From: Bythopirellula sp.
Lineage (GTDB): Bacteria > Planctomycetota > Planctomycetia > Pirellulales > Lacipirellulaceae
Direction of reading: 5' to 3'
Assembly (NCBI GenBank): GCA_965216565.1
Contig: OZ244170.1
Span: forward strand, 4,704,001-4,768,000
Length of the DNA stretch: 64,000 nucleotides
Shown piece after piece: positions 34,059 to 56,807 of this stretch. Each line of letters starts with the position of its first letter. The first letter of the stretch is position 1. The position numbers and the translations under genes are program-made. The notes beneath the pieces were generated by a model, which made no database searches, was not told the DNA's origin, and saw nothing but the letters and a program-made list of their open reading frames with translations.

Positions 34059-35000
34059 TCAGTTGACGCTGGCCGCCGTTTCGCCGCCGTTCATGGTGCC
34101 TAACGCTTGGTAAATGCGGAGGTCGATGTCTTCGCTCACCGTGTGGACGCTGCCGTCGCAGAGTAAGAATTGTGATAGCCCAGCGTGGGAAGCGGAGACG
34201 TCGCGGTCGTCGCTGTCCGAGGCGTTGGGAGTGTGCCCCGTTTGGAACAACACCATGTGGCCATGGTCGTCGGTCGATTCGTCGATGTCGCGGACTGCGC
34301 CGATCCAGGTGGTTTCATATTCCGTGTGGCTGCCGTTGACTCCAGCGGTGCGGAAGGGTCCGTTTTGCCGCTCGCCGACCATCAGTGTTTGCGACGTGCC
34401 GTCGGTAATCTCCGACAGCTTGGTTTGGCTATTGCGATAGAACGGTCCCCACGGGCCCTCATAGGTACCTAGTCCGGGAGCGACTTCGAGGCTTTCGCCG
34501 GCTTGGACTTGATCTAGGTCGAGATCGGGCACGCCGAAGTTGGCGACATAACATGCCATTGCGTAGCTTTCGTCTCCCATCTCGACAAAGCCGGTGGGCG
34601 AGACATCGTCGGTGGGACAGAGCAGTGTGCTGATGTGCTCGGCACGTACAATTTCGTTGATCGGGTCGTAAATTGGCTTGTTGAAGTCGATTCGATCGTA
34701 GAGATTACCGAGCTCCATGAACGGAAGAATCCGGGCACCCCAGGAATAGCCAAGTTGGTTACCCTCGCTGCCCAATTCGTACTCGTAGCCGGGTGGGAGT
34801 GATTTGAACGAAATTTCGTAATTGTGCATCGCCACGCCAACCTGCTTCAGATTGTTCTTGCAGGTATTGCGACGGGCGGCCTCGCGAGCAGATTGCACGG
34901 CCGGGAGCAGCAGGGCCACCAACACGCCAATGATGGCGATCACTACCAACAACTCGACCAGCGTAAAGCCACGATTTTTACTGGGGGGGAGATTCTTCAT
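34059..35000 (-). CDS. DUF1559 family prepilin-type protein
   Basis: GFTLVELLVVIAIIGVLVALLLPAVQSAREAARR, CPTD, ITDGTSQTLMVGE, H-AGLSQFLLC-DG; start at MKNLP (35000). Confidence 0.93.
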   Translation of the reverse strand: MKNLPPSKNRGFTLVELLVVIAIIGVLVALLLPAVQSAREAARRNTCKNNLKQVGVAMHNYEISFKSLPPGYEYELGSEGNQLGYSWGARILPFMELGNLYDRIDFNKPIYDPINEIVRAEHISTLLCPTDDVSPTGFVEMGDESYAMACYVANFGVPDLDLDQVQAGESLEVAPGLGTYEGPWGPFYRNSQTKLSEITDGTSQTLMVGERQNGPFRTAGVNGSHTEYETTWIGAVRDIDESTDDHGHMVLFQTGHTPNASDSDDRDVSASHAGLSQFLLCDGSVHTVSEDIDLRIYQALGTMNGGETAASVN

Positions 35001-35235
35001 CTTGTTCCTGGGATGCCTCCTCGGGATGGCTATGTTCGTGTCCGTGGCCGGTGAATTCGTCGTCTTGATGCTCGTGTTCGTGCGAAACGTCCACACTGTG
35101 CACGTGATAATGCTCGTGCGAGTCTTCAAGCATGACCGAATCGTCGCTGCCACGCTTGTGGTCTTGGGGATCGGTTTTGCTACATCCTATTACGAAGAGA
35201 AATGAAGCGGCGATGCAAAATTTCGGCCAATACAT
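34978..35235 (-). CDS. Small His/Asp/Glu-rich putative lipoprotein (85 aa, 12 His)
   Basis: Lipobox-like FVIGC; GGAG Shine-Dalgarno 8 nt upstream; HEHYHVH, HEHEH and HGHEHSH tracts; overlaps the DUF1559 start by 23 nt. Confidence 0.75.
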   Translation of the reverse strand: MYWPKFCIAASFLFVIGCSKTDPQDHKRGSDDSVMLEDSHEHYHVHSVDVSHEHEHQDDEFTGHGHEHSHPEEASQEQDEESPPQ

Positions 35236-41320: not shown

Positions 41321-43099
41321 TTATGTCCGATCTTGGGTTTGATCATTGCCGGTACGAGAAATCGCATCTTCGAGGAAATAGTTGATGTCCGCTGCTTCGT
41401 CGGCATGAAGCACGTCGTATGCATGAGCCGCGCTGCGAGCGTGGTATAGCTGCTCCCGCAGGTTCACGTCGCGCGTGATCGCCGTGGCAAATGCGGCCAA
41501 GACTTCAAGGTGGCGCTGATGGTCCGACTTGGGCGTGGCCAGCAGCAACACGGCATGAATGGGGCGGCCGTCTGGCGCGCCCAGGTCTAATCCTTTGGAG
41601 CTAATGCCCAAGATCCCTGTTACTGCTTCGCCACTTTCCAAAACAGCGTGAGGTACCATTAACCCTTCAGATAAGCAGGTCGTAGCCTCTTTTTCACGTT
41701 CCAGTACCTTCAGCACAAACTCTTCCTGCTCGACCGAGGGCGTTACTTTCGTTTTGTATAACTGGGCGGCCAGTGAGCGAACCACCTCTTCTTTGGTCGT
41801 CCCAGCGACATTGACAGAAATGTGGTGTTCATCCAGGAAGTCGAGGAGGCGTGGATGAGCTTTGCCAGCTTCGCCGGCTTGAGACAGCGCAAATCGTGCT
41901 CCACTTGGCCCCACAAGCTGATTGATCGCTAAGGCAGCCAAGGCAACTGTAGTAATCGTGGGCGAGATATCGCTTAGCCGCGGATTGTTTTGCACTAAGA
42001 GAATCAAACCAACGGCAACCCCGCCATGGGGAATTAATGCAAGGCCAAGATAGTTTCTTACGCGGTTGGGCACTCCGGCGATCGCCATCGCTGTGTAGGC
42101 GCCTGTGTACTTGCCTACGAACCGAGCAACGAAGTAGAGGAGAACAAGCCCCGTCGCCTGCAGCACTAAAGAGAAGTCTAAGTTCATCCCAGCAAACGTA
42201 TAGAAGGCCGCGAACAATACGCCCCCAATCGAATGCAAGTACGCCTCGGTAGATCGTACTGTGTCGTGGCGAACATTGGACACGGTGATCCCGGCGATGG
42301 TACAAGCCAGAATGCCTGAAGCTTCAAATCCTACGGCTCCGCCCCACGCACCGAGAATAACCGCGACCATCGTAGGTCCCAAGAATGCGGGACTCACCAG
42401 CGTGCGTGTTAATCCCAGGGCAATCAATGCACTCACGGTACCCACGGCCAGGGCGACCCCAAATTCGCGGCCGACGGATATAAGGGCCAAAGGCCAAGTT
42501 TCCTGCCAAGACAGATCTCCACTGCCTCCCTCCACTACAAATGACGCAGCAAAAACGAATGCTCCGACGGCTATCATGTCGATCAACGCTACGGCGGCTA
42601 CTAAAGTGCGGGTGAGGATACCCCGAGCTCGCGCTTCCTGAACCACCAAGATGGTTGTTCCCGGCGCACCCGCAATCGCGATGGCGGCCAGCAGCATGCT
42701 GGTCCGCAGGGTCATTTGCTCTGGGGCCATCCAGCCGCCGATCACGTACATGGCGGCAATAACAATCGAAGGAGTAATTAATGCTTCGCCTAACAGCAGC
42801 AGGCTCAACCTTCCGGTGGAGTTTCGTAAACTGGCAAAGTGCAAAGCAGCCCCGACCGTAAAGGCGATATAGCCCAGCACGAAGCTCATGTACGGGCTGA
42901 ACATGGAAACTGTTTCCGGCGTGAAACCGGTTGTGGAGTTATGGTACGGCGCAAATGCCCGCAGTAAGATTCCAGTGGAAATCCAGCCCGTGACTTTCGG
43001 TAAACGAATCAGTCCAAACAATTCGCCGCCAATGATTCCAGCAACTAGCACAATTGCGAGCTGAAATAGTGGGTCGTGTGGTGAGAATTGGAAATTCAT
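41321..43099 (-). CDS. Cation:proton antiporter (CPA2-like) fused to a PTS EIIA domain
   Basis: Multi-TM N-domain (LPKVTG, RFVGKYTG, LIPHGGVAVG); C-domain VLEREKEATTCLSEGLMVPHA, APDGRPIH, HLEVLA. Confidence 0.85.
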   Translation of the reverse strand: MNFQFSPHDPLFQLAIVLVAGIIGGELFGLIRLPKVTGWISTGILLRAFAPYHNSTTGFTPETVSMFSPYMSFVLGYIAFTVGAALHFASLRNSTGRLSLLLLGEALITPSIVIAAMYVIGGWMAPEQMTLRTSMLLAAIAIAGAPGTTILVVQEARARGILTRTLVAAVALIDMIAVGAFVFAASFVVEGGSGDLSWQETWPLALISVGREFGVALAVGTVSALIALGLTRTLVSPAFLGPTMVAVILGAWGGAVGFEASGILACTIAGITVSNVRHDTVRSTEAYLHSIGGVLFAAFYTFAGMNLDFSLVLQATGLVLLYFVARFVGKYTGAYTAMAIAGVPNRVRNYLGLALIPHGGVAVGLILLVQNNPRLSDISPTITTVALAALAINQLVGPSGARFALSQAGEAGKAHPRLLDFLDEHHISVNVAGTTKEEVVRSLAAQLYKTKVTPSVEQEEFVLKVLEREKEATTCLSEGLMVPHAVLESGEAVTGILGISSKGLDLGAPDGRPIHAVLLLATPKSDHQRHLEVLAAFATAITRDVNLREQLYHARSAAHAYDVLHADEAADINYFLEDAISRTGNDQTQDRT

Positions 43100-48974: not shown

Positions 48975-49643
48975 ATGGCTGCCAATAAACCTGTTGAGAC
49001 GCTGATTCCGCCGCGATATATGTTCCGATTTGCGGTGGACATACACCACTGCAAACCGATTTGGTCCCCGAAAGGTGTGTCGCTCGGTGAACAATATCAA
49101 TTGCCAAATCTAGGGCAGTTGGATCAAGATCGGGCGTTTGCTGAGGTCCGGATGGCTTGGTCGCCGGAAGGGGTGGCGTGGTGGGTGCGAGTCGAAGACA
49201 AACTACAGGTGCCCTGGTGCCGCGAATCGAGACTCGAAGAGAGCGACGGCTTGCACGTTTGGATCGATACTCGCGCCACAACGAATGTCCACCGTGCGAC
49301 GCGCTTTTGTCACCGGTTTGTGTTCTTGCCCGCCGGCGGAGGGCGCGATGCGCAGCAACCGGTCGCTGATCAGTTGTTGATCAATCGGGCACGAGAGAAT
49401 GCCAGGCCCGTCCGTGCCAGAGAATTACAAGTTGCAAGTCGCGTGACGAAGTCGAATTACGAACTGTCCGCGTTTGCTCCGGCCGAGGCGCTGGGTGGCT
49501 TCGATCCAAGTAGTCAGCCGCGGTTAAGCTTTACTTATGCCATTGTCGACCGCGAGCGGGGACTGCAAACATTTTCTGCTGGACCAGGAATTCCGTACGA
49601 AGAAGATCCAAGCTGCTGGGCCGAGGCCCATTTAGTGGAGTGA
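48975..49643 (+). CDS. Conserved hypothetical protein (DOMON/CBM9-like fold, tentative)
   Basis: 222-aa ORF; FAEVRMAWSPEG, DGLHVWIDTR, HRATRFCHRF; followed by a terminator. Confidence 0.65.
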   Translation: MAANKPVETLIPPRYMFRFAVDIHHCKPIWSPKGVSLGEQYQLPNLGQLDQDRAFAEVRMAWSPEGVAWWVRVEDKLQVPWCRESRLEESDGLHVWIDTRATTNVHRATRFCHRFVFLPAGGGRDAQQPVADQLLINRARENARPVRARELQVASRVTKSNYELSAFAPAEALGGFDPSSQPRLSFTYAIVDRERGLQTFSAGPGIPYEEDPSCWAEAHLVE

Positions 49644-49655
49644 AAATTCTAGAAT

Positions 49656-49688
49656 AAAAAAACCCGCCAACCGAAGTCAGCGGGTTTT
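49656..49688. terminator. Bidirectional rho-independent terminator
   Basis: AAAAAAACCCGC...GCGGGTTTT hairpin between convergent genes. Confidence 0.75.
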
Positions 49689-49717
49689 GAATGATCTTAC
49701 TCGGACTGACGCACTGT

Positions 49718-50206
49718 TTAGACGAGCAATTCTTCGTCATCTTCGTGGTCGTCATCTTTCTCGCACTCGCCACAGTGGGCTAGCAACTCTTCTTCGTCGC
49801 CGTCGTCGTCCTTTTCGCACTCACCACAGTGGGCTAGCAACTCTTCTTCGTCGCCATCGTCGTCCTTCTCGCACTCACCACAGTGGGCTAGCAACTCTTC
49901 TTCGTCGCCGTCGTCGTCCTTTTCGCACTCACCACAATGGGCCAGAAGCTCTTCTTCGTCGCCATCGTCGTCTTTTTCGCACTCACCACAGTGGGCTAGC
50001 AACTCTTCTTCGTCGCCATCGTCGTCCTTCTCGCACTCACCGCAATGGGCTAGCAACTCTTCTTCGTCGCCATCGTCGTCCTTTTCGCACTCACCACAAT
50101 GAGCATAGGTGTCGAGGGTTTCGTCGCTGACGGACAGGTCGTTATTGCCAAATGCAAAAAGAGCTAGCAAAGACAAGCCAAAGATAGATGTGATCAATTT
50201 CTTCAT
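49718..50206 (-). CDS. Secreted tandem-repeat protein: 7 x (AHCGECEKDDDGDEEELL)
   Basis: Signal peptide MKKLITSIFGLSLLALFA; AGGGAG Shine-Dalgarno; upstream TATAAT; differences among the six full repeats are synonymous in this frame. Confidence 0.85.
   Translation of the reverse strand: MKKLITSIFGLSLLALFAFGNNDLSVSDETLDTYAHCGECEKDDDGDEEELLAHCGECEKDDDGDEEELLAHCGECEKDDDGDEEELLAHCGECEKDDDGDEEELLAHCGECEKDDDGDEEELLAHCGECEKDDDGDEEELLAHCGECEKDDDHEDDEELLV
49721..50104 (-). repeat. 54-bp coding tandem repeat, 6 full copies plus 1 variant copy
   Basis: Direct head-to-tail repeats without spacers. Confidence 0.95.
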
Positions 50207-50506
50207 CGAATTGGACTCCCTAATAATTGTTTACGAGAACCCTGTTCTCGAATGGTAGGCGAATGCACCAGTGGCTCTTGAACGTGGTTCTAGGTGACCT
50301 CGGTTCGCACGTCTAAGCCTAACGAATAGCTTGTATTATATCGACTCGACTGAGCCGCCAAGGTGAAAAGCAATACAGTTTTCCGAAAGAGTTTTGAGAA
50401 ATCTCGTTGAAATTCGGTCGGAACTCATCTCCCCTTCTGGCCTTGGGGTTCAAGTTGTAAGGCGAAACGTTCTAGACACTTGCCGAAAACGTCCATAAAA
50501 GGACCC

Positions 50507-52398: not shown

Positions 52399-53607
52399 TC
52401 AGCCTCGCTCGCGGATGGTTGTGCCGTCGGCGATGTCGTCGCCGGGGTGGACGATGACTTGATCGCCGGGCTCTAAGCCCCTCAGGACTTCCGCCGCTAA
52501 GCCGTTCTGCAGGCCGAGCTCGACTTCCCGCAGGCTGGCCGCCCCGTCTTTGGCAACGAACACGGCCCACTGGTCGCCAATTCGGAACAGAGCGCTGGTC
52601 GGTACCTTCAGCACGTCCGCGGCTTCCTCCACTATGATGCGGGCCTCGACGCGGAATCCATCGCCCAAGCTTCGTCGGTCTTGTGGGGGGTCGAGCAGGT
52701 CGACGATCACGTTCACGCGCTGCTCTTCCACACCCAGGGTAGAAATCTTAGTGAAGGCAGAGGGCTCGACGAGTCGTACCCTGCCCTCCAGAACTCTTGT
52801 GCCACCCCAATGTTCCAGCAGCACACGTGCACCGGCGGGGATCTTCACCGCGTCGCGCGAGAGGACGTCGATCTCCACCTCCAAATCGTGCGGGTCGCCA
52901 AGTTCCAGGAGTGCGGTGCCGGCGTTCACCACCGCGCTACTCTCCTGAAACACTCGCAACACGAGTCCATCGATGGGGGAGCGAATCGTGAAATTCCAAC
53001 CTCCGCCAGGCGAAGGCTGGGCTCGGTCTTGTGGACGCGAACGGATGAGGGCTGCCCGTGCTTGCTCCAGTTCGAAGCGAGCGATCTCTTCGTTGTGCCT
53101 GGCGGCGCGCAACATCGCCTTGCGGCTACGCAGCGCGAGAAGTTTGGCCTCCACCTCGCTTTGACTAATCGCTTGAGCCGCGTCTTGGGCTCGTTGCAAT
53201 TCTGTTTGGGCATACTCCATGTTTGCCTGAGCTTCTTCCAGCATCGGCACCATTTTTTCCAAGGCAGCTTCCGCGGCATTGACTCGCGCCTCGGCTTGAG
53301 CGATCGAGCGAGAGTCGAGCAACTCGGGATCGCGCGGCTCTACGGTGGCCAGTAGTGTTTCGCTGCTGGTCACTTCATCGCCAGGGTCGAGATCGATCCG
53401 TAAAAGTCGACCTGCTAGGGGTGTGGAGACTATATATCGCTCGCGAATTCGGGTCTTGCCATCCTGATCGACGGTCACTCGAATCGTGCCGTTCTCGATC
53501 TGCGCTAAATCGACCTCTTTCGGTTCCGGGACAAAGCCATACCCAACCGCGGCAACAATGGCCACGGCTACGAGCAGGAGCGATAGTTTGCGGAAAGTTG
53601 ATTTCAT
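52399..53607 (-). CDS. Efflux periplasmic adaptor (HlyD/MacA family)
   Basis: N-terminal TM, STPLAGRL lipoyl half, coiled coil, SPIDGLVL, KISTLGVEEQRV. Confidence 0.9.
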   Translation of the reverse strand: MKSTFRKLSLLLVAVAIVAAVGYGFVPEPKEVDLAQIENGTIRVTVDQDGKTRIRERYIVSTPLAGRLLRIDLDPGDEVTSSETLLATVEPRDPELLDSRSIAQAEARVNAAEAALEKMVPMLEEAQANMEYAQTELQRAQDAAQAISQSEVEAKLLALRSRKAMLRAARHNEEIARFELEQARAALIRSRPQDRAQPSPGGGWNFTIRSPIDGLVLRVFQESSAVVNAGTALLELGDPHDLEVEIDVLSRDAVKIPAGARVLLEHWGGTRVLEGRVRLVEPSAFTKISTLGVEEQRVNVIVDLLDPPQDRRSLGDGFRVEARIIVEEAADVLKVPTSALFRIGDQWAVFVAKDGAASLREVELGLQNGLAAEVLRGLEPGDQVIVHPGDDIADGTTIRERG

Positions 53608-53659
53608 AGTGGGATGCTTAGTTATGTTGCTTTCTTACAGCTAATCTCACATGGTAAAG

Positions 53660-53700
53660 CCCCCTCCCCTAGCCCCTCCCCCGAAAACGGGAGAGGGGGA
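53660..53700. repeat. BoxC-like palindromic repeat
   Basis: CCCCCTCCCCTAGCCCCTCCCCCGAAAACGGGAGAGGGGGA between the permease and adaptor genes. Confidence 0.6.
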
Positions 53701-53717
53701 TTGGAATGAGCTCTTGG

Positions 53718-56081
53718 CTATTCTCTTGCCTTCAATACAGCAATCAAGTCGAGATGGTCGAGTTTGTTGCGCACCAGCAGCCCCGAGACGACCGAGGCCG
53801 CCATCACCACAGAGGCAGCTAGTGCATAGGTAGTTCGCTCGATCACCAGCGGAAATCGGAACAATTCCAGGTCCAGCGTGCTCACTACGAGCGAGGCCAG
53901 TTGATAACCCATCCACAGACCCAGGGGAATGGCAATCAAGGTGACGATGGCCAGCTCGCCCAGCAAGATGGCGGAAATCTCACCCCGAGTGAACCCTATC
54001 ACTCGCAACGTCGCCAGCTCGCGGCTGCGCTCCGAAAGCGAGATGCGGGCACTGTTGTAAACCACACCAATCGCAATCACGCAGGCAAATATCAGATTGA
54101 TCGACCGCATCAACATCATGTTTTCGCCGATGGTTTTTTCAAAGCTATCGATTGCATGCTGTTTGACCGTGACGCCCGCGACGTTGGGAACTTGTTTGAG
54201 CTGACGAAACAAGGTGTCTTCCACGCGCGAATCGACAACCATATGTGCGCCGTTTACCAGCGGTCCTTCGCGCATCATGTTGCTAAGGGCATCGATGCTC
54301 ATGTAGGCGCTGACACCGGCGAAGTCTTGGAGTTGCCCGGCGACCACCACTTCCCGCACGGGTCGTTTTCCCTCCAGCACTTCTACCTGAATATGGTCGC
54401 CAATTTTTACCCCTAAGATATCTCCTAACTTCCGAGAGATTAGCAGTCCGTCGGTGGGGAGTGCGATTTCCTTGCCGTCAATATTCACCAGTCCGTAGAG
54501 CTTGCTGTCGAGCGGGATTCCCTGGATGCCAACACGACGTTCGCGAGGGCCGACACGGAACCGCGTGGAGACCGACCGCGTCGGTTCCGCATAAATCACC
54601 CCCGGCATGCTGCTCACTTCGTGAATAGCGCGACTGGAGACTGGCTCGTTTGTCACGATGGACATGTCGTACCGCTGCACTAACCGAAACTGGGCGTGGA
54701 TGACGTAGTCGACCGAATCTTCCATGAAGTTGCCCAACACAATGATGGCAACCGCCATGGCAATGGCCGTTACGGAGAGCCCCGTTTTGATCGGGTGACG
54801 TTCCAGTTGGCGAATAATCATGCGTCCCACGGGCGGGACAAGATGGCCGAGCCGAATCCGCTCCAAGAGCGTCGGGCCATAGGTGGTGGGAGGCTCGGCC
54901 CGCATCGCTTCGGCGGGTGGGAGGCGAACGGCTCGAATAATGGCGCTCGCAGTGCCCAGCGTGGCCGCAACTATGCTAACAAGGGTGGCCGTCAGTGCCA
55001 CATCGTAAGTCAATTGATAGGTGAATGAAGGGAAGTGAAACAGCTTGGCATACATACCTGTAACGCCCTGCCCTAGCCATGCCCCCAGTGGCAATCCAAT
55101 TGCCAGGCCGAACCCGACGATCAGCAGCACTAGCTTCAGATAGTGCCAACCGACTTCCCAATTGGAATAGCCAAAAGCCTTTAGCGCAGCAATTTGCTCG
55201 CGTTGCAGATTGATGATCCGAGTGAGAACCACATTCAACAGAAACGCAGCGACACCCAGAAACACCGAAGGCATGATCAGCCCTAGTTGCCGATTCTGCT
55301 CAATTTCGTTATCCACAAACATGTGCGATGGTTGATCCTTGCGCGTGAACGAACCAAGTCCGCCGTACGGTTCAATCAACTCATCTAGCCGCGCCAGCAC
55401 TTCATCTGCCAACGCGCCACGCAATAGCGATAAGGTGACATCGTTAAAGGCACCTTCCAGATTGTAGGCCACGGACAATGCCTCGTGGTTCATCCAAAAA
55501 ACGCCAAAATGCTTGTTGTCGGGGAGTAGGTCGCCGGGTTTGATTTCGTAGATGTACTCTGGAGAGAGGGCGATGCCGACGATGCGCAATCGCTTTTGTC
55601 GGCCATTGATCACGGCGAGAATGTCGTCTCCTACGTGAAGATCATTGGCCAGGGTGAACGCCTCGCTGGCCAGCACTTCGTCGTCGCGACGCGGCTTGAG
55701 CCAGCGGCCTTTGCGCAAATAGAGTTGGTTGAGTACGGGCTTGCGGGTGTCGGGTAGCGAAACCAGCCGCCCTGTTGCTGGTTCGGAGACTCCGGGAACA
55801 GTCAGATTGACGTTGACGACGATGCGGGTTTCCAGCCGGCCCACGCCGGGGATTTCTGCAATCCGATCGGCGAGAACATCGGGAGCACGCTTGAGCGAGG
55901 CAAACACGTCGGCAAATAGATAACGCTGGTAGTACGTGTCCTGGGTGAGTTCCAGCGAGAACAGCATACTCCGCGACAGGGTGAACAGCGCGATGCCACA
56001 GGCAATCACCATGGCAATCGCCACTGCCTGTCCCTTCATGTTCCAAAGATCGCGAAACGTTTTTCGATTGAGCGCTGTCAT
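53718..56081 (-). CDS. ABC transporter permease (duplicated MacB/FtsX domains)
   Basis: QREQIAALKAFG and ERSRELATLRVIGF FtsX motifs; 787 aa. Confidence 0.9.
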   Translation of the reverse strand: MTALNRKTFRDLWNMKGQAVAIAMVIACGIALFTLSRSMLFSLELTQDTYYQRYLFADVFASLKRAPDVLADRIAEIPGVGRLETRIVVNVNLTVPGVSEPATGRLVSLPDTRKPVLNQLYLRKGRWLKPRRDDEVLASEAFTLANDLHVGDDILAVINGRQKRLRIVGIALSPEYIYEIKPGDLLPDNKHFGVFWMNHEALSVAYNLEGAFNDVTLSLLRGALADEVLARLDELIEPYGGLGSFTRKDQPSHMFVDNEIEQNRQLGLIMPSVFLGVAAFLLNVVLTRIINLQREQIAALKAFGYSNWEVGWHYLKLVLLIVGFGLAIGLPLGAWLGQGVTGMYAKLFHFPSFTYQLTYDVALTATLVSIVAATLGTASAIIRAVRLPPAEAMRAEPPTTYGPTLLERIRLGHLVPPVGRMIIRQLERHPIKTGLSVTAIAMAVAIIVLGNFMEDSVDYVIHAQFRLVQRYDMSIVTNEPVSSRAIHEVSSMPGVIYAEPTRSVSTRFRVGPRERRVGIQGIPLDSKLYGLVNIDGKEIALPTDGLLISRKLGDILGVKIGDHIQVEVLEGKRPVREVVVAGQLQDFAGVSAYMSIDALSNMMREGPLVNGAHMVVDSRVEDTLFRQLKQVPNVAGVTVKQHAIDSFEKTIGENMMLMRSINLIFACVIAIGVVYNSARISLSERSRELATLRVIGFTRGEISAILLGELAIVTLIAIPLGLWMGYQLASLVVSTLDLELFRFPLVIERTTYALAASVVMAASVVSGLLVRNKLDHLDLIAVLKARE

Positions 56082-56087
56082 GGTTGG

Positions 56088-56807
56088 CTACCAGGTGAGC
56101 TCGTGCGCTTCGCGGCGTGTTGCATTTTGCTCGACTCCGGTTATGAGTCCCCCGGAAAGATGAATCACTCGGTCTGCCATTTCTGCGATTACTGCATTGT
56201 GGGTGATCACTGCGGTGGTCGTCCCTAGTTCTTGATTGATTCGCTGGATCGCCTCGAGCACCAACACGCCGGTCTTCACGTCAAGGGCACCGGTCGGTTC
56301 GTCGCAGAGCAAGACGTCTGGCTTCTTGGCAACCGCGCGTGCAATGGCCACGCGTTGCTGCTCACCCCCTGACATTTGCGCCGGGAAATGATCTTTTCGG
56401 TCTCCCAGGTCCACAAGTTCCAACGCCTCCAAAGGCGTCATCGGATTGGCCGCAATCTCCGTGATTAGTGCGACGTTTTCCAGCGCTGTGAGGCTTGGAA
56501 TCAAATTGTAGAACTGAAACACGAAGCCGACGTGGTCGCGGCGATAGCTGGTCAGCCCCGCATCGTCGAAGTTGGTGAGCTCCTTATCCCGGTAATGAAC
56601 AGAGCCCGCCGACGGCACATCGAGCCCGCCCAGGATGTTCAGCAGAGTACTTTTGCCACTCCCCGAAGGGCCCAGCAAGACGACAAACTCACCCGAATGC
56701 AGATCGAGGTCTACTCCGCGCAAGGCTTGCACGTCCACCTCGCCCATATGGTAGACCTTGGTGATTTCTCGGGCAGCAAATACTGATTGTGCTTGCGTTG
56801 TTTCCAC
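56088..56807 (-). CDS. ABC transporter ATP-binding protein (LolD/MacB type)
   Basis: [31 protein letters not shown]. Confidence 0.94.

Follow-up and report, generated by a model that had tools for sequence, protein, structure and literature searches.

A Cys-pair repeat protein family of Planctomycetota and Verrucomicrobiota whose unit junction recurs at the stop codon: a possible polyprotein source of metal-binding peptides

A 64,000-nucleotide stretch of the Bythopirellula sp. genome (hereafter the window) contains a repeat gene whose family is undescribed in the libraries and literature searched and spans two PVC phyla. The family is characterized by a junction of the form [L/T/S]-[L/F]-[A/V], with a Cys pair 1-3 residues behind it, and the stop codon falls in the register of this same junction. 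In the window, the ORF listing and its translation give a 162-residue protein made, in order, of a signal-peptide-like start, a short pro-linker, seven Cys-pair units and an in-register stop right after LLV (Table 1). Six units are exact copies of AHCGECEKDDDGDEEELL, each of 18 residues; the seventh is a 19-residue variant ending EELLV-stop. TRF reports a period of 54, 6.5 copies and 91% matches for the gene, and the protein contains 14 Cys and 8 His, with Asp or Glu at 64 of its 127 repeat residues. An earlier note, made from the DNA sequence alone, had described seven HCGEC units with 14 Cys, 8 His and roughly half acidic residues, a description borne out by the ORF, the TRF result and the composition. 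It had also distinguished the motif from the CxxCH of heme c, and rightly: every one of the seven units has Glu, not His, after its second Cys, and neither Pfam nor NCBIfam returns a cytochrome family for the window protein.

Table 1 Features of the repeat gene and its flanks (positions in the window)
Feature	Position	Strand	Basis
Whole gene, 162 aa	49718..50206	(-)	ORF sequence and family searches
Predicted Sec signal peptide or anchor, residues 1-20, MKK and hydrophobic stretch	50147..50206	(-)	sequence
Polar pro-linker, residues 21-35, ending in the first junction TYA	50102..50146	(-)	sequence and junction profile
Seven units in junction register, HCGEC, acidic linker and LLA	49721..50101	(-)	TRF, sequence, junction profile
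Shine-Dalgarno-like AGGGAG, 9 nt before ATG	50216..50221	(-)	sequence
TATAAT, -10-like hexamer, 134 nt before ATG	50335..50340	(-)	sequence
Intrinsic terminator hairpin, 13-bp stem, T run	49659..49688	(-)	terminator scan
CRP/FNR-like box TGTAT-N6-TCACC, candidate activator site	50362..50377	(-)	consensus score and orthologues

The signal peptide was assigned by eye and from hydropathy, and residues 3-20 form the sole helix of the AlphaFold model. In the lipobox consensus the Cys stands at the end of the hydrophobic stretch; no lipobox is present here, the first Cys being residue 37, after Y-A-H. AlphaFold yields a confident fold for neither branch of the family, planctomycete or verrucomicrobial (mean pLDDT 44.7 with 13 rows and 48.9 with 61 rows), and the repeat protein is predicted to be disordered.

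Among the six full units, 9 of the 54 nucleotide columns vary, and all nine variations are synonymous. Synonymous changes are expected to be in the minority, at 17.9% of the possible single changes and 35.2% of the transitions, so that an all-synonymous pattern is improbable by chance (P of about 8e-5 under a transition model, or 7e-4 when the Leu-Leu block of unit 3, with its three changes, is taken as one event). The repeat gene is real, and its peptide is under purifying selection. The synonymous character of the unit differences had already been recognized, and the variable sites listed at the time hold; one, Ala GCT/GCC, had been missed. As for the concern that the copy number might be an artefact, seven is the count in the assembly, and contigs of public sequencing runs break inside the array; since relatives carry 1 to 8 units, the repeat architecture is no assembly artefact. 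Run X5, from a second study, contains the repeat locus with strain differences. Four differences lie inside the array, all at synonymous third positions when compared by hand, and they may stem from another unit placed there. In run X1, loose contig ends lie at window positions 49692 and 50217, just outside the gene, and the depth over the 5' part of the gene is about threefold, which suggests that this sample holds a second, near-identical copy with other flanks, belonging to another strain or locus.

Successive searches retrieved 7, 23, 47 and 166 proteins, amounting to 172 identifiers; after P0048 and P0053 were dropped as false hits, about 170 relatives remain, so the gene, for which the earlier note had called for a homologue search, is not unique. 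Among the family proteins, 59 were inspected in full and 45 in part. The median unit length is 20 residues. Carriers that could be named belong to Bythopirellula (including Bythopirellula polymerisocia Pla144), Lacipirellula, Luteolibacter, Akkermansiaceae and other Verrucomicrobiales, as collected with a two-unit DNA pattern. A scan with the DNA pattern returned 89 stretches, most of which are unrelated long Cys-rich repeats of myxobacteria and some of which are out of frame; 29 pattern loci were flagged as charged, and removal by eye of five cytochrome-like ones left 24 family loci. Small cytochrome-c-like proteins with C-terminal KPEE repeats, from Nitrospirota-type records (L081, L085, L107, L118 and L120), were rejected as unrelated to the family. 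Judged from sequence matches, the distribution of the gene in its phylum appears patchy: 17 of 120 genomes of the same taxonomic family match our alignment A2, one of them (G006) marginally, and the same query, with at most 11 candidates scored per genome, gave no match in 400 further genomes from the phylum. The planctomycete and verrucomicrobial profiles align with 97.6% probability and an E value of 2.9e-12, figures that low complexity may inflate.

For the window protein, Pfam returned repeat-summation artefacts only (Csx1_HEPN, E 1.7e-8, with 0 passing stretches), and for 61 relatives nothing coherent. NCBIfam gave weak, scattered matches (best among 61 members, E 0.002-0.01), and a sequence search of the PDB nothing under E 0.3, in line with the earlier statement that no named family has this architecture. 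In the ESM Atlas the window protein found no usable match, and a verrucomicrobial member only 'hypothetical' clusters (0.81-0.88). There was no plasmid match, and nothing near a gathering score in Rfam. We found no published description of the family in a literature search that covered few subscription journals, and the MNIO landscape paper nowhere contains the strings Planctomycet-, Verrucomicrob- or CGKC in its main text.

The same genome encodes a Cys-free paralogue (C1:3404014-3404232, reverse strand, equal to L140:8014-8232) that consists of a signal peptide and two acidic Phi-L-(V/A)↓KSGKK units, VLV↓KSGKK and VLA↓KSGKK, and ends LRIV. Its cluster comprises DUF3179, two GT2 glycosyltransferases (one TIGR04283-like, below the cut-off), DUF547 and a CRP/FNR regulator, and displays several CRP-like boxes, one of them perfect. 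A BBP2 beta-barrel porin with N-terminal CCGD repeats lies 1.7 kb from the paralogue (L140:4953-6320, reverse strand), and a protein similar to the paralogue is found in another genome (G023, at L163).

The junction profile was derived from 30 genome-read genes with verified stops. Of the 24 family loci, three were left out of this count, with start or stop not in view or as a duplicate (L109, L116, L124), and six others (L047, L054, L057, L080, L083, L123) repeat proteins already counted. Before the 115 xCG units of these genes, P3 is Leu (38), Thr (22), Ser (16) or Ala (11), P2 is Leu (75) or Phe (19), and P1 is Ala (82) or Val (22). The protein ends show the same profile, with T10/L9/S5 at -3, L21/V4/F4 at -2 and A19/V9 at -1. 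The C-terminus fits the pattern [LIVFMWTSQ][LIVFM][AV]A?-stop in 26 of the 30 genes, compared with 37 of 2425 long ORFs of the genome (1.5%) and 108 of 3056 random cut points (3.5%); the four misses are KLA (twice, in proteins whose own junction is KLA), MLS and LLT. This pattern was written after the 30 genes had been seen and was then applied unchanged to 110 held-out proteins. Of their C-termini, 94 fit, versus 316 of 8674 random cut points (3.6%), a result favored by the fact that the held-out set was found with a profile containing the terminal motif. Among the 16 that do not fit, thirteen end in something close to the pattern, for instance ALA or TLI, and three proteins run on.

Tandem copying of the unit is not the whole explanation for this register, because n units carry n+1 junctions, the first unit being preceded by one as well (TYA, SFA, TIA or PIA); the single-unit members P0017 and P0051 have both junctions. 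In 61 of the 110 proteins, the three C-terminal residues are also found ahead of an internal Cys unit, and part of the register arises by itself if a stop-ending unit is duplicated in tandem. In Verrucomicrobia, the first Cys is located 1-3 residues behind the predicted signal-peptidase site, mostly AFA or SFA, in 92 of the 102 proteins where the pattern found such a site, and the same distance separates Cys from internal junctions in 248 of 265 cases. With both sites at equal distance from Cys, internal units would share the N-terminus of the first unit. The junction is retained in units devoid of Cys, in which Ser occupies the Cys position (KSG, GSG), and in the Cys-free paralogue.

The core of the unit is the Cys pair CGKC/CGEC. 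Between junction and Cys, 60 of the 115 units have Asp and 42 have His, so that His is optional and Asp the commoner residue; His-Cys follows the junction in 7/7 window units versus 42/115 family units. Units can start with D, H, A, Q, G, SD or GK, and in some of them only one Cys is left, or no Cys at all. The HCxxC core given in the earlier note therefore does not describe the family: of the His/Cys conservation that it had set as a test for homologues, the Cys pair holds and His does not. Its suggested cut at ELLA↓H, on the other hand, gains support at the level of sequence from the family-wide junction and the in-register stop, even if the HCxxC that follows is not family-wide. The linkers contain 43% Asp plus Glu in planctomycetes, versus 28% Lys and 29% Asp plus Glu in verrucomicrobia.

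The repeat gene is situated between purK, upstream, and a convergent gene without a Pfam match. With one representative annotated per neighbor cluster, purK was found beside 8 of 18 planctomycete loci (a number that includes one duplicate and the paralogue), while of 14 verrucomicrobial loci, 9 adjoin tgt-yajC-secDF and 8 adjoin a NUDIX gene; nadA, scpA and lpxB are other neighbors. No tailoring, dedicated peptidase or metal-handling gene adjoins the family genes among the loci examined, and the view that no maturation enzymes are adjacent holds: the neighbors are housekeeping genes. The convergent gene (window 48975-49643, forward strand) encodes 222 residues, matches neither Pfam nor NCBIfam and has homologues at the same position in three other loci (L003, L014, L021). 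Upstream of purE-purK, an HlyD-type adaptor and, by eye, an ABC permease and ATPase are encoded (window 52399-56807, reverse strand); this order is repeated in L047, L054 and L057, with no link to the repeat gene shown. Elsewhere in the window, a gene at 41321-43099 (reverse strand) joins a membrane protein to a PTS EIIA domain and, judged by eye, is probably a fusion involving a cation/proton antiporter. Another ORF (34978-35235, C1:4738978-4739235, reverse strand) encodes 85 residues that look like a lipoprotein and end in an acidic tail rich in His (HEHYHVH...HEHEH), possibly a metal-binding protein.

The repeat gene is monocistronic and probably under the control of a CRP/FNR-family activator. 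The Shine-Dalgarno sequence, TATAAT hexamer and terminator of the earlier note are all present, although without a canonical -35: a sigma-70 scan found no canonical -35/-10 pair upstream of the gene. GGAG precedes most planctomycete orthologues, and when 31 family loci were folded, most showed a downstream hairpin followed by a T run. The terminator of the window gene has an A run on its other side and may thus also serve the convergent gene. The candidate activator box scores 7 of 10 against the CRP consensus and lies 21 nt before the -10 hexamer, which is the class II position of CRP/FNR activators. Under the same scoring, 10 of 16 planctomycete genes reach at least 6 of 10 and 6 of 16 at least 7, versus at most 3 and 1 of 16 at other gaps; among 1807 upstream regions in the genome, the corresponding shares are 5.7% and 0.9%. 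The gap was fixed after the first loci had been inspected, and the scored loci are kin. Verrucomicrobial genes score lower (5/14 and 2/14, respectively). Genome-wide, the class II signature shows no enrichment (44 at gap 21/22 vs 33-57 at other gaps), so that it is orthologue conservation only that speaks for the box.

The genome encodes two paralogous CRP/FNR regulators (C1:3411558-3412310 and C1:118565-119275), the second of which has a gene for a (seleno)protein with a YHS domain nearby. Of 11 perfect TGTGA-N6-TCACA boxes genome-wide, 8 fall between genes, versus a 21% background, and the intergenic ones precede nqrA and genes for a Rieske protein, a ferredoxin and DUF547/regulator. Twenty hand-picked genes after strong boxes include those for NqrA, a Rieske protein, cytochrome c and ferredoxin, as well as two thioredoxins, a P-type ATPase and a MerT/HMA protein, a hint that CRP-like boxes mark a respiration, redox or metal regulon. 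Upstream of verrucomicrobial members (L043, L075, L114, L117), a different element is conserved, T(T/C)YGAATAATTT ... TGGCG ... GGGTA, partly palindromic and about 22 nt before a weak -10; genes of this type have A/C-rich leaders without a Shine-Dalgarno sequence.

Based on the above data, we tentatively propose, as a reading that we regard as plausible while far from assured, that the repeat protein is an exported disordered polyprotein from which a housekeeping peptidase of the envelope, cutting behind every junction, releases unmodified metal-binding peptides. The chain would leave the cytoplasm through its signal peptide, and this export is very likely. It would then be cut after every [L/T/S]-[L/F]-[A/V] junction to give unmodified peptides of about 18-25 residues, here 18-mers HCGEC...LLA, a cleavage toward which the evidence leans. 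The simplest way to account for the n+1 junctions, for a stop in their register and for their resemblance to the signal-peptidase site is that every unit would receive the same two ends, namely a free N-terminal X-Cys and a non-polar C-terminus. The free N-terminal His/Asp-Cys-Gly-x-Cys would finally bind a soft metal ion outside the cytoplasm.

The cutter would be a PDZ protease, Prc/CtpA or HtrA, working stepwise from the C-terminal end. Such an enzyme fits best, since the chain that remains after a cut would again end in a non-polar C-terminus like that of the native protein. Tsp has a P1 preference, and DegP acts processively. The identity of the peptidase, whether a PDZ protease or alternatively signal peptidase I, is a guess. 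The -3,-1 rule of signal peptidase disfavors Val at P1, and with Val at this position in 22 of 115 units we rejected signal peptidase I as the sole cutter while keeping it as a minor option. The PDZ domain of Prc binds non-polar C-termini, and the enzyme is mainly a degrading one, with several substrates that lack non-polar tails (PMC7481392). CtpA cuts DLA↓A, with the P2 Leu as the key residue (PMC8909930). In the genome of the window, S41 was matched three times and trypsin-2 17 times, and S26 matches occur at two loci; however, S41 and HtrA-type proteases also occur in 10 and 12 of 14 control genomes, and such near-universal enzymes discriminate nothing by their presence.

By analogy with the nickel hook of NiSOD, the metal would probably be held by the amine, an amide and two thiolates, with the choice among Cu, Zn and Ni left undecided. 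NiSOD binds Ni via the amine of His1, the amide of Cys2 and two thiolates (PMC10685849), and shares with the repeat protein an A↓H-C start at a processing site (here a proposed one); the NiSOD of the same genome reads LAA↓HCE after its signal peptide. The two also differ: the Cys spacing is 2/6 in NiSOD (PF09055) versus 2/5 in the family, whose His is often Asp, the helical bundle is absent from the family, and the window protein has neither a PF09055 match nor a predicted fold. A partnership with NiSOD as a general link was considered and rejected. NiSOD occurs in 14 of 15 planctomycete carriers versus 0 of 15 verrucomicrobial carriers, and in 15 of 16 carriers of the own taxonomic family versus 55 of 120 genomes of that family, and it is common in the genus anyway (20 of 26 other genomes). 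A single metal-site geometry is further weakened by the variable first residue and by the units with one Cys or none, and the periplasmic CxxC pairs may simply be oxidized to disulfides, which counts against a metal site. The most specific version of the proposal, an exported, CRP/FNR-controlled polyprotein metallophore of Planctomycetota and Verrucomicrobiota from which a housekeeping PDZ protease, stepwise from the C-terminus and with no tailoring enzyme, frees up to eight unmodified peptides whose X-Cys-Gly-x-Cys N-terminus resembles the nickel hook, is rather unlikely to be right in every part.

Alternatively, the chain could stay whole once its signal peptide is removed and serve as a disordered periplasmic metal sponge following the logic of SilE/PcoE or metallothionein, a reading close to the multivalent chelator of the earlier note. 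Each ion would be held by a pair of CxxC motifs, with the hydrophobic tripeptides stapling the chain as it folds on metal. We consider this to be a somewhat unlikely explanation, for which the predicted disorder, the 14 Cys and 8 His, the His-rich linkers of many relatives and a copy number that varies freely from 1 to 8 all speak. SilE, itself a periplasmic sponge, is disordered until Ag+ makes it fold (PMC5008109), and, like the repeat protein, SilE/PcoE are small and exported with repeated metal ligands; the low pLDDT of our two models is compatible with disorder of this kind, not proof of it. Furthermore, unmodified HvfA binds 2-3 Cu(I), if weakly (PMC11252979). However, SilE uses His and Met and sits in the sil efflux operon (PMC5008109), whereas the family uses Cys pairs among housekeeping genes, and the window protein has no Met beyond its start codon. 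A sponge would also leave unexplained why the junction resembles a signal-peptidase site at an equal distance from Cys and why it is retained in Cys-free units, and no efflux or metal-sensor gene adjoins at the loci examined.

A further possibility, which we deem unlikely, is an envelope stress protein of the Asr type, that is, a highly charged, repetitive and disordered chain acting as a chaperone or thiol/disulfide buffer. Such a chain might or might not be cut, and its Cys pairs would switch with redox state and not bind metal. The E. coli protein Asr carries the annotation of a periplasmic chaperone and follows the same plan, with a signal peptide ending AFA, charged disordered AQAA↓KKH repeats with Ala-ending internal sites and a non-polar C-terminus, PAA. 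Asr undergoes internal processing. Its periplasmic location is given in PMC3396692. The existence of Cys-free units and of a Cys-free paralogue fits this explanation, as do the respiratory genes and thioredoxins among the hand-picked genes behind strong CRP-like boxes. Against it, Asr (NF033636; L185) is basic and has no Cys, whereas a Cys pair stands behind nearly every junction of the repeat family. There is no homology past the signal peptide (hhalign probability 2.6%, covering the signal peptide only; the NF033636 model reaches E=0.0089 in 1 of 61 members), and the Cys-Gly-x-Cys core stays constant while the net charge goes from strongly acidic in planctomycetes to neutral in verrucomicrobia.

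The non-polar tails could themselves be functional, the protein or its fragments being a ligand that activates or occupies the PDZ proteases HtrA/Prc, with the Cys pair adding redox or metal dependence. The terminal tripeptide is indeed the best conserved feature, Cys-free members included, and the PDZ domain of Prc binds such tails (PMC7481392). Nevertheless, no protease gene or sensor is linked at any locus examined, and the constant X-CG-x-C directly after the junction would have no explanation, which makes this reading very unlikely.

The resemblance to multi-core RiPP precursors has to be weighed as well, in which Cys (or Ser) cores would be modified by an enzyme encoded elsewhere. The closest systems are the HvfA/oxazolin and Buf_EGKCG metallophores made with MNIO enzymes (NF050137). 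As described (PMC11252979, PMC12452194), they share with the family a signal peptide, Cys repeats in Lys/Glu-rich spacers and a likely role in envelope metal chelation. A signal peptide with Cys-rich repeats, by which MNIO metallophores are recognized, is present in the repeat family, the core-plus-flank plan is common to both, some units read A-E-G-K-C, AEGKCKK-type units resemble the AEGKCGEGKCG of HvfA, and the Ser at the Cys position of Cys-free units would suit a modified core. The HvfA model gives E=0.014 in 1 of 28 members; the HvfA/EGKCG precursor models (NF050137) match neither the window protein nor, at E 0.01, any of 61 members. The family core is C-G-x-C and not EGKCG twice, and its hydrophobic junction recurs at the C-terminus, unlike in these systems. 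Moreover, MNIO (PF05114) was not found near the gene or anywhere in the own assembly (94% complete, one contig), it is present in 1 of 30 other carrier genomes, many of them incomplete, and absent from the other 29, and no tailoring gene adjoins at the loci examined. A modified precursor is accordingly quite improbable. A polyacidic biomineral template, suggested in the earlier note from a repeat region that is half Asp or Glu, is the least probable reading, highly so, because the polyacidic tract is lineage-specific, verrucomicrobial members being charge-balanced with linkers of 28% Lys and 29% Asp plus Glu, and no mineral-related neighbors were seen at the loci examined.

Two further systems were compared. 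KEX2 cuts at dibasic sites. In the fungal proteins that it processes, secreted near-identical repeats are released as peptides by a housekeeping protease (PMC6339444), much as proposed here; these are, however, eukaryotic, and the site proposed for the family is hydrophobic-hydrophobic-Ala/Val. Leaders of the DUF2946 type (CutF/CruR/CzcI) differ as well: the window protein has no PF11162 match (the CzcI model gives E=0.008 in 1 of 61 members), and a terminator and a convergent gene, not a co-oriented metal-transport gene, lie downstream. The repeat family thus belongs to none of the compared systems, each of which failed in its testable defining feature.

The family is therefore conserved in two PVC phyla with a sharp grammar of junction, Cys pair and in-register stop. 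If the chain is cut as proposed, these bacteria would make envelope metal-binding peptides without a biosynthetic cluster, and such peptides would for this reason be invisible to cluster-based genome mining; it would also reveal a productive use for proteases known mainly for degradation. If the chain is not cut, it would still constitute a new Cys-based family of periplasmic sponges. The 18-mer is easily synthesized and named genomes carry the gene, which makes both proposed steps, cleavage and metal binding, directly testable.
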